The position numbers and the translations under genes are program-made. Source: Paludibacterium yongneupense DSM 18731 (GTDB taxonomy: Bacteria; Pseudomonadota; Gammaproteobacteria; Burkholderiales; Chromobacteriaceae). Taken from it: 24,000 bases of DNA. How positions within the stretch are numbered: position 1 is the first letter of the stretch; every line of letters begins with the position of its first letter. Below, piece after piece: positions 7,936-21,173 of the stretch. Location of the stretch: NCBI RefSeq assembly GCF_000422925.1, contig NZ_AUGZ01000005.1:384081-408080 (forward strand). Reading direction: 5' to 3'. Below the pieces are notes generated by a model. The model was given only the letters and a program-made list of their open reading frames with translations. It was not told the origin of the DNA and did not search any database.

Positions 7936-7962
7936 TGTAACCGGTTTCTGAGACCGGTTTCA
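7936..7962. promoter_or_regulatory. two abutting LacI-family operator sites upstream of the PTS operon
   Basis: TGTAACCGGTTTCT (7936-7949) and TGAGACCGGTTTCA (7949-7962) share one base. Both fit the TGnAAnCGnTTnCA LacI/GalR operator pattern and the exact copies at 17162, 17193 and 21160. They lie 70-96 bp upstream of the IIB ATG. Confidence 0.7.
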
Positions 7963-8031
7963 TTAATGCACACCGGCCTGGATGACTGGTTAAATTTATG
8001 GCACGACTCATTGCACTTGGAGGAGATAGCG

Positions 8032-8340
8032 ATGGTAAAAATATTCCTGTGTTGCGCCGCTGGGATGTCGACCAGCATGGTTGTCAGCAAGATGCGCCAG
8101 GCAGCCGCCCAACAAGGCGTCGAAGCCGAGATCACCGCAGTCAGCATGGAGGACTTCGATCGGACCTTGCCCGACTATGACTGCTGCCTGCTCGGACCTC
8201 AGATCAAATACAAACTCGACGAGTTCAAGACCAAGGGCGCCGCCCTCAACAAGCCGGTATCGGTCATCAACTCGATGGACTACGGCATGATGCGCGGCGA
8301 CAAAATCCTGAAAGAAGCGCTCGCGCTCCTGGCCCACTAA
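8032..8340 (+). CDS. PTS lactose/cellobiose-family EIIB component
   Basis: ATG 8032 has GGAGGAG (8019-8025) 6 nt upstream. MVKIFLCCAAGMSTSMVVSKM carries the phosphorylatable Cys in the C-x-x-G-M-S-T-S loop. Length is 102 aa, typical of ChbB/CelA-type IIB. The upstream part of track ORF 7594..8340 is not protein-like. Confidence 0.92.
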   Translation: MVKIFLCCAAGMSTSMVVSKMRQAAAQQGVEAEITAVSMEDFDRTLPDYDCCLLGPQIKYKLDEFKTKGAALNKPVSVINSMDYGMMRGDKILKEALALLAH

Positions 8341-8359
8341 ACAGAACAGGGAGCCCGCC

Positions 8360-9685
8360 ATGTCAACTAGCCAAGCCTTTTTCGAGTTCATCGAAAACAC
8401 CATCACGCCGATAGCCGCCCGCGTCGCATCCCAGCGCCATGTCATGGCCGTCCGCGACGGCTTCATTGCCGCCATGCCATTCATGATCGTCGGTTCCTTC
8501 TTGCTGGTTTTTGCCTTCCCGCCATTTTCCGCCGACACCCAGCTGGGGTTCGCCCAGTGGTGGTTACGCATCGCCAAGGAATATCAGGGGCAGATTCTGA
8601 CCCCGTTCAATATGAGCATGGGGATCATGGCCTGTTACATCAGCGCCGGGATCGCTTATAACCTCGCGCAGAGTTACAAGCTCGAGGCATTCCCGATTTC
8701 GATGCTGGGTTTGATGGCATTCCTGCTCATCGCCGCACCGCTCAAGGATGGCATGCTGCCGGCCTCCAATTTGGGCGGAACCGGCATTTTCACCGCCATC
8801 ATCGTCGCCATCTTCACCGTCGAACTGGTCCGTTTGCTCAAGGCATACAACATCGGAATCAAACTGCCCGAGCAGGTGCCGGAGAAAATCCGCCACTCGT
8901 TCAACATGCTGATTCCGGCCCTGGTCATCATCCTCACGCTCTACCCTCTGAATCTGTTCATCCAGCATCAGTTCGGCATGCTTCTACCCGAAGCGATCAT
9001 GGCCATTTTCAAGCCGCTGGTTTCGGCCAGCGACACCCTGCCTGCGATTCTGCTCGCAACCCTGCTATGCCATATTCTCTGGTTTGCCGGCATTCACGGA
9101 GCGGCCATCGTCGGCGGCATTCTGCAACCGTTCTATCTGGTCAACCTCGGTGCGAACCAGGCCGCGCTGGCAGCGGGCCATCCGCTGCCGCATGTGTTTA
9201 TCGAAGCGTTCTGGAGTTTCTTCATCACGCTAGGCGGTTCGGGCGCCACGCTGGGACTGGTTTTACTGTATATGCGCAGCAAGTCGGCGCACCTTCGCTC
9301 AGTCGGGGGGCTGGGCATCGTGCCCGCGCTGTTCAATATCAATGAACCCATCATTTTCGGCAGCCCGATCGTGATGAACGCGACCATGTTCATTCCCTTC
9401 GTCTTCGCCCCGATGATCAACGCCACGATCGCCTACTTCGCCATCCAGGCCGGTCTGGTCGGCAAAGTCATCGCCCTCGTGCCGTGGACTGCACCCGCTC
9501 CGATCGGTGCGGCCTGGGGCGCAGGCTGGGTCATGGGCAACGGCATTCTGGTCCTGCTGCTTATCGCGCTCGACCTGCTGATCTATCTGCCCTTCTTCAA
9601 GATTTATGAAAAGCAGTTGCTGGAACAGGAAGCGCTCGAAGAGCAGGACACGCCCGAACACGGCGGCGTCGCTCAAACCGCGTAG
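8360..9685 (+). CDS. PTS lactose/cellobiose-family EIIC permease
   Basis: 441 aa, polytopic. The N-terminus FIENTITPIAARVASQRHVMAVRDGFIAAMPFMIVGSF and the overall pattern are typical of ChbC/CelB-type IIC. GGGAG lies upstream of ATG 8360. Confidence 0.92.
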   Translation: MSTSQAFFEFIENTITPIAARVASQRHVMAVRDGFIAAMPFMIVGSFLLVFAFPPFSADTQLGFAQWWLRIAKEYQGQILTPFNMSMGIMACYISAGIAYNLAQSYKLEAFPISMLGLMAFLLIAAPLKDGMLPASNLGGTGIFTAIIVAIFTVELVRLLKAYNIGIKLPEQVPEKIRHSFNMLIPALVIILTLYPLNLFIQHQFGMLLPEAIMAIFKPLVSASDTLPAILLATLLCHILWFAGIHGAAIVGGILQPFYLVNLGANQAALAAGHPLPHVFIEAFWSFFITLGGSGATLGLVLLYMRSKSAHLRSVGGLGIVPALFNINEPIIFGSPIVMNATMFIPFVFAPMINATIAYFAIQAGLVGKVIALVPWTAPAPIGAAWGAGWVMGNGILVLLLIALDLLIYLPFFKIYEKQLLEQEALEEQDTPEHGGVAQTA

Positions 9686-9758
9686 ACGTCAGACGGTCCG
9701 GCGGCGAAGGCCGGACCGGAACACCCACCCTGTCAGGGTTATACCCGGAGTCACGGTA

Positions 9759-10082
9759 ATGGATATCGAAACCACGGTAATGGAGCTGATCATTGCCGCC
9801 GGCGAGGCAAAAAGCCTGGCCATGCAGGCTTTGCACTCGGCCAAGCGGGGCGAGTGGGCCCAGGTCGACACGCTACTGGCCGAATCGGCGGCCGCCTCGC
9901 GCAGCGCACATGAAGTTCAGACCACACTGATAGGCATGGACGAGGGCGAGGGCAAGCTGCCCGTCACGCTGATCCTCGTCCATGCGCAGGATCACATCAT
10001 GACTTCGATGCTCGCGCGTGAAATGATCGCCGAGATGATCGAGTTGCATCGCACGATTCAACAATTGAAGGAACCGGCATGA
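9759..10082 (+). CDS. PTS lactose/cellobiose-family EIIA component
   Basis: ATG 9759 has GGAG 8 nt upstream. [33 protein letters not shown]...[14 protein letters not shown] is a helical IIA-Lac/Cel pattern including the VHAQDH phospho-His context. Length is 107 aa. The earlier part of track ORF 9606.. overlaps the IIC end and is not IIA-like. Confidence 0.9.
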
Positions 10083-20000: not shown

Positions 20001-20162
20001 ATCGCCTCCGCAAAGCAATGAATGGAAATGCCGTACCGCGGATGGCGGTACGACAAGAACCGGCCCGGGAAGGGTAAAGCCGGAAATCCCGGATGATGAA
20101 CGGCCCTCAGAGTTGGAACGCGGCAGACCGACGTGTGTGAAGCCATGCCGCACAGGCAGACG

Positions 20163-20198
20163 AAAGCGGGCCGGGGGCATGGCCCCCGACCCGCTTTT
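20163..20198 (-). terminator. intrinsic terminator after the SMP-30 gene (bidirectional shape)
   Basis: 16-bp stem with one mismatch (20163-20178 / 20182-20197) and a 3-nt loop. An A-tract lies on one side and a T-tract on the other, so a U-run follows the stem on both strands. It starts 23 nt after the SMP-30 stop on the minus strand. Confidence 0.7.
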
Positions 20199-20220
20199 AG
20201 TCCGGCGAACCCGCCCTCGT

Positions 20221-21087
20221 TCAACCGGCGAACTTGACTTCCGGCAGGCCGGCCACGTCCACCTGGAACAGGATGACCGCGCCTTCGTTGGGGTTGGCCG
20301 CCAGTTGTTCCGGCGTCATTTTCTGGCAGGCGCTGGTCACGAACATCGTCTTGTAGTCGGCGCCGCCGAAACACGGCATGGTCGGAATCGATACCGGCAG
20401 CTCGACGGTTTGCAGCAATTCTCCCTGCGGACTGATGCGCAGGATCTTGCCGCCCGCGTACAGCGCGGACCAGTAGCAGCCTTCGCTATCGACCGTACCG
20501 CCGTCGGGACGGCCCCAGCCTTGCGGGACGACGAAGAACTCGCGCTGATTGCTCGCATCGCCGGTCGCCGGGTCGTAATCGCACTGGTAGATGGTCAGGC
20601 CCGGGGTATCGGACCAGTACAGGGTCTTGCCATCCGGGCTGAAGGCCATGCCATTGCAGGTCCAGCTCTTGCCGATCAACTGGCGCACGGCCAGCTTGGC
20701 ATCCAGCTGATAGAAGGTGCCGTAGGAGTCGTCTTTGCGGCCATTCATGGTCCCGGCCACCAGTCGGCCCTGACGGTCGCAACGGCCATCGTTGAAGCGC
20801 TGATGCGGTTTGTCCGCCTCCGGGTCGACGATCGGACGGACGACCGGATTGAGCAGATCGTCGATAAACGCCAGGCCCGACTGCAGTCCCACCACCATGC
20901 CGCCCTTTTCGCGCAAGGCGAAGCAACCGATTTCTTCTTCCAGCTGGATCACATGACGCGAACCGGTAGGCAGATGATGTCCGAGGATCTGGTGTTGCAG
21001 GATATCGACCCACCACAGGGTATTCGTCTGTTCGTCCCAACGCGGGCACTCGCCCAGCTGATAGCGGCCTTCGGATAGTGTTTTCAT
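20221..21087 (-). CDS. SMP-30/gluconolactonase/LRE-family protein (putative cytoplasmic sugar lactonase)
   Basis: ATG 21087 begins MKTLSEGRYQLGECPRWDEQTNTLWWVDI. Further family motifs are RFNDGRCDRQGR, NGMAFSPDGKTLYWSDT and PDGGTVDSEGCYW, which are six-bladed propeller lactonase hallmarks. No signal peptide. The 56 extra N-terminal codons in the track ORF are Arg/Pro-rich and cover the operator site. Confidence 0.88.
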   Translation of the reverse strand: MKTLSEGRYQLGECPRWDEQTNTLWWVDILQHQILGHHLPTGSRHVIQLEEEIGCFALREKGGMVVGLQSGLAFIDDLLNPVVRPIVDPEADKPHQRFNDGRCDRQGRLVAGTMNGRKDDSYGTFYQLDAKLAVRQLIGKSWTCNGMAFSPDGKTLYWSDTPGLTIYQCDYDPATGDASNQREFFVVPQGWGRPDGGTVDSEGCYWSALYAGGKILRISPQGELLQTVELPVSIPTMPCFGGADYKTMFVTSACQKMTPEQLAANPNEGAVILFQVDVAGLPEVKFAG

Positions 21088-21159
21088 CGATCGTCTCGTG
21101 TCAGTAGTAATAAGGCTGCGGTCCATCCGCGGCCCCGGGCGGCGCAAAGGGCAACAAAA

Positions 21160-21173
21160 TGTAACCGGTTTCA
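21160..21173. promoter_or_regulatory. LacI-family operator (exact TGTAACCGGTTTCA) upstream of the SMP-30 gene
   Basis: Exact 14-mer identical to 17162 and 17193. Lies 73 bp upstream of ATG 21087 in the narL-SMP30 intergenic gap. Confidence 0.7.

Follow-up and report, generated by a model that had tools for sequence, protein, structure and literature searches.

Introduction

The closest described relatives of the system treated here are three repressors of the LacI family. AscG belongs to ascFB, the cryptic beta-glucoside phosphotransferase system (PTS) of Escherichia coli, and AscG is reported to have two sites in the ascG-ascF spacer (PMC3505978). For the gamma-proteobacterial CelR proteins, which form a paraphyletic group with AscG as one of its branches, Ravcheev et al. 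2014 (PMC4052901) predict a role in cellobiose utilisation and cellobiose-6-phosphate as the effector (RegPrecise); the same paper states that the motifs of CelR and AscG are drastically different. For PtxS of Pseudomonas, the operator 5'-TGAAACCGGTTTCA-3' was shown by electrophoretic mobility shift assay and DNase I footprinting; it overlaps the transcription start, and repression results from blocking RNA polymerase (PMC11678583). Here we analyse a stretch of 24,000 nucleotides of Paludibacterium yongneupense DSM 18731 (contig NZ_AUGZ01000005.1, positions 384,081 to 408,080; hereafter the window), in which five copies of a 14-bp palindrome lie upstream of a PTS operon, a GH4 gene and a lactonase gene. 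An earlier note, made from the letters of this DNA, had proposed that a single LacI-family repressor acts through these copies on four transcription units, the fourth being a membrane-protein/GH1 unit. From sequence comparison we consider it likely that the five palindromes are operators of the CelR/AscG-clade repressor encoded at 13705-14757, and conservation in other organisms supports the proposal for three of the four units.

Results

Five copies of a LacI/GalR-type palindrome

The putative operators, listed without strand, are the following.

7936 to 7949: operator O1 of the tandem pair 5' of the PTS operon (TGTAACCGGTTTCT), a pattern match; the pair is kept in L045, L031 and Tolumonas/Aeromonadaceae
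7949 to 7962: operator O2 of the tandem pair (TGAGACCGGTTTCA), a pattern match; the pair is kept in other loci
17162 to 17175: proximal GH4 operator, an exact copy within a 32-bp insertion
17193 to 17206: distal GH4 operator, an exact copy that aligns with the single operator of L031, L032 and L033 (alignment A1)
21160 to 21173: lactonase operator, an exact copy; orthologous sites in L036-40, L041-43 and L045

A pattern search of the window recovered all five sites at the positions given in the earlier note, with TGTAACCGGTTTCA as exact copies at 17162-17175, 17193-17206 and 21160-21173, TGTAACCGGTTTCT at 7936-7949 and TGAGACCGGTTTCA at 7949-7962, the T at 7949 being common to both sites of the pair. 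All five are intergenic, with start codons 24-96 bp downstream across the window and the related loci. The tandem pair is located 70-96 bp upstream of the IIB ATG (8032), the GH4 pair 37 and 68 bp upstream of the GH4 ATG (17125, minus strand) and at the same time 168-212 bp upstream of the membrane-protein ATG (17374), and the lactonase site 73 bp upstream of the lactonase ATG (21087, minus strand), which reproduces every distance that had been reported.

When up to 3 mismatches were allowed on both strands, the window contained 11 matches, whereas 0.99 were expected and the largest number in 100 shuffles was 5, in line with the earlier statement that the copies are not due to chance. For the core AACCGGTT, of which 0.24 occurrences were expected in the 24 kb, four were counted, all of them within the listed sites, so that the observation of no further core elsewhere holds; the sole further weak match in the window is TGTTACCCATTTCA at 7885, which has 3 mismatches and lacks the central CG. 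In unrelated control loci (L012-L028 without L019, and L046-L049; about 380 kb), we found 3 matches with up to 2 mismatches.

These counts bear on the alternative that the 14-mer has no regulatory role, being either a dispersed short repeat or a palindrome that arose by chance. Three identical copies could suggest recent copying, and the proximal GH4 copy is indeed located within a lineage-specific 32-bp insertion, but the shuffles never reach the observed count and the control loci are nearly empty. Moreover, the 30-nt flanks of the five sites match pairwise at 4-10 of 30 positions, which is about chance level except for flanks that overlap a neighbouring operator, and the sites are therefore not part of a longer dispersed repeat unit, as the earlier note had allowed for. 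The alternative is further contradicted by conservation, since the sites are kept 5' of orthologues in organisms of 46-65% G+C while their flanks diverge, and we regard it as extremely improbable.

The consensus built from 20 non-redundant sites of the window and related loci, TGWAACCGGTTWCA (T-G-W-A-A-C-C-G-G-T-T-W-C-A, positions 5-10 invariant), is palindromic, with CG at its centre and the TGnAAnCGnTTnCA register of LacI/GalR-type operators, and thus agrees with the operator shape that had been assigned to the sites. Its perfect palindromic form is identical to the PtxS operator TGAAACCGGTTTCA, and the E. coli ascG-ascF spacer carries the motif twice, as GGTGACCGGTTTCA and TGAAACCGGTTTCT, which are probably the two reported AscG sites. 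The operator is therefore of an already known type, by experiment in the case of PtxS and by fit in the case of the AscG spacer, a point that the earlier note did not make. Cra/FruR, with the half-site TGAAAC located one base nearer the centre and hence in a different register, was set aside on this general background.

The regulator belongs to the CelR/AscG clade

13705 to 14757, plus strand: LacI-family regulator of the CelR/AscG clade, proposed binder of the five sites; PF00356 and Peripla_BP domains

As had been noted, and in agreement with the domain search, this is the only LacI-family gene within the window and ends the PTS gene string. With comparison sequences taken from the supplement of PMC4052901, its product is 52% identical to CelR(1) of Enterobacter 638, 49% to both CelR2 of Aliivibrio salmonicida and CelR(1) of Pectobacterium, and 43% over the full length to E. 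coli AscG. The best solved-structure matches are 3dbi (2.9e-77), the aligned sequence of which matches the E. coli AscG sequence, and 3brq (1.3e-64), which is deposited as AscG, followed by CcpA (2e-47). In the helix-turn-helix/recognition-helix segment AGVSKATVSRVL, the regulator is identical to AscG. No NCBIfam equivalog cut-off was reached, the best being GalR with 278 bits vs a cut-off of 557. From the overall similarity and from the combination of recognition helix and operator we conclude that the regulator is a member of the CelR/AscG clade.

The tandem sites are kept upstream of orthologous PTS operons

8032 to 8340, plus strand: PTS IIB of the lactose/cellobiose family, first gene of the operon; Pfam PF02302, 7e-23
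8360 to 9685, plus strand: PTS IIC of the lactose/cellobiose family; PF02378; TIGR00410, 368 bits, above cut-off
9759 to 10082, plus strand: PTS IIA of the lactose/cellobiose family, 107 amino acids as called in the source genome; PF02255
10079 to 11482, plus strand: GH1a, beta-glucosidase or 6-phospho-beta-glucosidase; PF00232, 1.6e-172; TIGR03356, 515 bits, above cut-off
11550 to 11810, plus strand: HPr; PF00381
11826 to 13583, plus strand: PTS Enzyme I; PEP-utilizers domains

Domain searches confirm the identities of the IIB, IIC, IIA, GH1, HPr, Enzyme I, LacI-family, LysR-family, GH4, second GH1 and SMP-30 genes. In reference genomes, the regulator has its closest orthologues in Tolumonas and related Aeromonadaceae (59-62% identity), whose loci (L001-L006, L019) contain a syntenic IIB-IIC-IIA-GH1-regulator operon with structural proteins 64-85% identical to those of the window (74-85% for IIB, IIC and GH1; against Tolumonas, 78% for IIB and 84% for GH1a). 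The tandem pair is present upstream of IIB in five of the six Tolumonas/Aeromonadaceae loci that include the IIB upstream region, while L004 has a single site; the pair is located 44-58 bp before the IIB start codon with a distance of 13 bp from centre to centre (e.g. TGTAACCGGTTGCTGTAACCGGTTACA), and its surroundings differ. It is likewise present in L031, a metagenome contig with Paludibacterium-type gene order. Among the more distant orthologues of the regulator, that of Endozoicomonas (43% identical) has one related AACCGGTT site upstream of the regulator gene and in Vibrio (40%) the DNA that separates the regulator gene from a GH1b-like gene contains three AACCGGTT sites. Motif and regulator gene thus occur together in the window, in L045, L031, six Tolumonas/Aeromonadaceae loci, Endozoicomonas and Vibrio; at a second Tolumonas IIB-type operon, which no regulator adjoins, the motif was not found.

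The congeneric contig L045 has the whole arrangement in common with the window, with cluster proteins that are 79-100% identical (IIB 100%; the Stv-like protein 58%). All five 14-mers are identical there and located at the same places, while the spacers around them have substantially diverged, and L045 also keeps the LysR-type box and the lactonase -35 and -10 hexamers described below. Taken together with the sites of the GH4 and lactonase orthologues, the check at orthologous loci that had been proposed was positive, the motif being kept 5' of IIB, GH4 and lactonase genes in other genera within diverged intergenic DNA. At its start (1-311), L045 contains an additional gene for a LacI-family protein, located immediately 5' of IIB.

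Although the host belongs to the beta-proteobacteria and has a G+C content of about 60%, its IIB, IIC and GH1a proteins share 74-85% identity with those of Tolumonas/Aeromonadaceae. Genes for HPr and Enzyme I are missing from the Tolumonas operon and are located between GH1a and the regulator gene in Paludibacterium-type loci only. The high identity to Tolumonas proteins and the restriction of HPr and Enzyme I to Paludibacterium-type loci therefore suggest that the PTS operon was acquired by horizontal transfer, followed by insertion of the HPr and Enzyme I genes.

Further elements were observed around these operons. A conserved block GATATTGCATTGCA...TTGTTACCCA (window 7861-7898; L045 about 421-470) is located 40-75 bp upstream of the tandem operators and contains the palindrome TTGCATTGCAA as well as, at 7885, the weakly motif-like TGTTACCCATTTCA; another factor may bind this block, or it may form part of the promoter. 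In three Tolumonas loci, a motif-like (T/C/G)GATTCCGGTTTCA is found about 1.3 kb downstream of the regulator gene (L001 12360, L003 12376, L004 12296). The spacers of two Kosakonia loci (L007 9820-9935, L008 9825-9935) carry repeated TGGCATACCA / TGGTATTCCA elements rather than the AACCGGTT motif.

The GH4 promoter region combines the proposed operator with a putative LysR-type box

15791 to 17125, minus strand: GH4 6-phospho-beta-glucosidase; PF02056 and PF11975; NCBI name
14667 to 15689, minus strand: LysR-family regulator (GcvA/DsdC-like); PF00126 and PF03466
17236 to 17250, without strand: putative LysR-type box ATTAGCCATACTAAT (ATTAG-N5-CTAAT), conserved, about 59 bp upstream of the predicted GH4 transcription start

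The GH4 protein is 60-64% identical to like-named proteins of Vibrio, Enterobacter and Klebsiella. Orthologues in L032 (83% identity), L031 (80%) and L033-35 (74%; 46% G+C and no PTS genes nearby) each have one site, and a GH4 site is located 24-37 bp upstream of the start codon in all of these loci as well as in the window and L045. The 32-bp insertion with the proximal operator is present in the window and L045 only (alignment A1, columns 111-142), and the two operators are 31 bp apart from centre to centre, i.e. about three helical turns. The distal one overlaps a -10-like TACAAT (17196-17191, minus strand).

Alignment A1 contains four conserved blocks, namely a LysR-type box ATTA(G/C)-N5-(C/T)TAAT, TTT(C/G)GCTT, the operator and (A/C)T; the last directly follows the operator and completes a -10-like TACAAT/TACACT, which overlaps the right half of the operator. 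The LysR-type box is kept in the window, L045 (9832-9846), L031, L032 and L033, about 30 bp upstream of the GH4 operator, and a LysR-family gene adjoins GH4 in every lineage seen (window, L031, L032, L033-35, L045). The conserved box together with the adjoining LysR gene suggests that GH4 is under dual control, with LysR activation and LacI-family repression; neither the LysR gene nor the box had been pointed out in the earlier note. In the window, the LysR gene follows GH4 on the same strand, 101 bp downstream by the source gene call and 59 bp by the longest open reading frame, and because of this proximity it may be co-repressed with GH4.

The constant presence of the LysR gene beside GH4, including L033-35 where no LacI-family gene is nearby, could also mean that the palindrome in the GH4 promoter is the site of this LysR-family regulator and not of a LacI-family protein. 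However, the same palindrome is located 5' of IIB in Tolumonas loci in which no LysR homologue was detected, and 5' of lactonase genes; the conserved ATTAG-N5-CTAAT, located about 30 bp upstream of the operator, is a distinct box of the usual LysR form; and the register of the 14-mer, with CG at its centre, is that of LacI. We consider binding of the palindrome by the LysR-family regulator very unlikely, and retain the LacI-family regulator as its probable binder.

A lactonase gene with a conserved site

20221 to 21087, minus strand: SMP-30/gluconolactonase-family lactonase without evident signal peptide; PF08450, 2.3e-80
21185 to 21213, minus strand: promoter-like TTGGCG-17-TATGAT with TG extension for the lactonase gene; both hexamers kept in L045

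The lactonase operator begins 12 bp after the conserved -10 element. Lactonase orthologues were found in two further groups of loci with quite different neighbourhoods, L036-40 (73% identity, 52% G+C) and L041-43 (64%, 47% G+C). In these, the lactonase start codon is preceded at 60-72 bp by the site, TAAAACCGGTTTCA or TAAAACCGGTTACA, and each locus of 10-16 kb contains no other match when up to 3 mismatches are allowed.

Since TGAAACCGGTTTCA is precisely the operator of PtxS, another LacI-family regulator of this specificity encoded elsewhere in the genome, such as a PtxS orthologue sensing 2-ketogluconate, could bind all the sites or at least that of the lactonase gene, and the lactonase could belong to a gluconate regulon. 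A gluconolactonase-family enzyme suits gluconate metabolism, no CelR-like gene is located near the lactonase gene in L036-43, and PtxS groups are listed by RegPrecise (PMC4052901) for the beta-proteobacteria Burkholderia and Ralstonia. On the other side, the 14-mer of the lactonase gene does not differ from the two GH4 operators and differs only slightly from the PTS operators, which themselves co-occur with a CelR/AscG-type gene across genera, and the window contains no kgu, gad or ptxS-like gene. Two regulators acting on one operator in the same cell would cross-talk, which is usually selected against and counts against a PtxS-type binder as well. We consider this alternative unlikely, though less so than those above, and favour the CelR/AscG-clade regulator for the lactonase site too. 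An assignment of the window to the PtxS regulon as such was tried and rejected: the operator agrees, but the targets do not, kgu/gad-type genes being absent from the window.

Two further observations concern the lactonase loci L036, L040 and L041. A second palindrome with another half-site is found 4 bases downstream of the lactonase operator (TGTTACCGGGAACA at L036 7946-7959, TGTTACCGGAAACA at L040 7947-7960), which may represent a weaker operator or the site of another regulator. In addition, in the low-G+C relatives a glyceraldehyde-3-phosphate dehydrogenase gene follows the lactonase gene at a distance of about 105 bp on the same strand (L040 8001-9982; L041 8001-9987), and the two genes may be co-transcribed.

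The divergent membrane-protein/GH1b unit

17374 to 18075, plus strand: membrane protein, divergent from GH4, possible regulon member; no family match
18118 to 19529, plus strand: second GH1 gene (GH1b) with a -1 frameshift near 18410; both frames match PF00232

Control of this unit, the part of the earlier proposal that did not hold to the same extent, is only plausible, as it is derived from the intergenic region that the unit shares with GH4 within Paludibacterium. The arrangement is the same in L045 and a relic of it is present in L032. The membrane protein has no Pfam or NCBIfam match, and its homologues (56-58% identity; L046-L049) are located in unrelated contexts, in which the motif was not found. 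A plus-strand promoter-like match at 17127-17156 would put the first operator at about +1; it matches the consensus weakly and lies in a region that is conserved anyway. Compared with the intact 469-amino-acid gene of L045, GH1b lacks one base, and because an independent assembly (L030, SRR896343) has the same sequence, GH1b is probably a real pseudogene in this strain.

Other genes of the window

6512 to 6991, plus strand: AsnC-family regulator (gene map)
19578 to 20000, minus strand: small Stv-like gene (gene map)
from 21285, minus strand: narL, then narX (gene map)

In L045, a pair of genes encoding a LysR-family protein and a carboxymuconolactone decarboxylase (12872-14232) is inserted between the Stv-like and the lactonase genes.

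Discussion

In the mechanism we propose, a dimer of the repressor would bind each palindrome with its hinge helices at the central CG and would repress three promoters, either by occlusion or as a roadblock in the early transcribed region. Three units would be blocked in this way: the operon IIB-IIC-IIA-GH1-HPr-EI(-regulator), the gene of the GH4 6-phospho-beta-glucosidase, with which the downstream LysR gene is probably repressed, and the gene of the SMP-30 lactonase. The two GH4 operators may also serve the divergent membrane-protein/GH1b unit. Release is expected upon binding of a phosphorylated beta-glucoside made by the PTS, e.g. cellobiose-6-phosphate, and activity of the GH4 promoter seems to require, in addition, the neighbouring LysR-type regulator, which would act on the ATTAG-N5-CTAAT box. 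The target genes, encoding a PTS of the lactose/cellobiose family, GH1 and a GH4 6-phospho-beta-glucosidase, fit a role in beta-glucoside or cellobiose use.

Several points weigh against the view that the CelR/AscG-clade repressor acts on all these sites. No CelR-like gene was found within the fetched 7-16 kb of L033-35 and of L036-43, and the link to the regulator is an assumption at these loci. The motif scan in the source organism covered the 24-kb window, and a second regulator of the same specificity may be encoded elsewhere. The Kosakonia orthologues of the regulator (L007, L008; 52% identical, with the same helix) have no clear motif beside their PTS genes. Upstream of IIB, a promoter scan gave no sigma-70-like promoter, and two repressor dimers only 13 bp apart might clash sterically.

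With respect to what is new, our understanding of LacI-family repression is unchanged by this regulon, and the additions are modest: the lactonase as a conserved regulon member, the presumed dual LysR/LacI control of GH4, and evidence for the sharing of a Tolumonas-like operon, operators included, with a beta-proteobacterium, in which it contains HPr and Enzyme I genes. The AscG/PtxS-type operator TGAAACCGGTTTCA would accordingly serve a cellobiose-type PTS regulon outside Enterobacterales, with members that are not usually tied to such regulons, i.e. a presumably cytoplasmic sugar lactonase and a GH4 enzyme that is accompanied by a LysR-family regulator. The locus may also illustrate how a regulon grows, in that the operon would have arrived with its operators and the 14-mer would then have appeared at other promoters, once via a 32-bp insertion. 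For a little-studied beta-proteobacterium, this amounts to a testable regulon prediction.

More tentatively, and with considerable doubt on our side, the lactonase could be a regulon member in at least three lineages and thereby point to an undescribed catabolic link, with GH4 under a two-key LysR/LacI control. If this were true, glucose freed from the phosphorylated disaccharide might be oxidised intracellularly to gluconolactone and enter the Entner-Doudoroff pathway via the lactonase; in a second version, the true substrate would be a beta-glucoside in oxidised form, for example cellobionolactone released when cellulose is broken down oxidatively.

Comparison with known systems

PtxS of Pseudomonas shares its operator TGAAACCGGTTTCA with the palindromic consensus found here, but differs in its effector, 2-ketogluconate, and in its targets kgu, gad and ptxS, none of which is present in the window. 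The CelR groups of RegPrecise (PMC4052901) are similar in protein sequence (49-52% identity) and in the type of operon, a cellobiose PTS with a glycosidase. In contrast to the gamma-proteobacterial groups, however, the motif here is AscG-like, the Kosakonia orthologues of the Enterobacter-type CelR lack it, and the host is a beta-proteobacterium, whose operon resembles that of Tolumonas (78-84% protein identity).

AscG is similar in several respects, which include 43% identity, the best structure matches, the same helix-turn-helix segment, a spacer that carries the motif twice, and targets consisting of a beta-glucoside PTS and a 6-phospho-beta-glucosidase. The asc system differs in others. 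AscF is a glucose-family protein with fused IIBC, whereas the window encodes IIB, IIC and IIA of the lactose/cellobiose family as separate proteins; the regulator gene is located at the end of the operon, whereas ascG is divergent; the operators upstream of the operon form a tandem pair with a distance of 13 bp, whereas those of AscG are about 76 bp apart; and the regulon would also hold a GH4 enzyme and a lactonase. From this comparison we conclude that the regulon is of the known CelR/AscG type with an already known operator.

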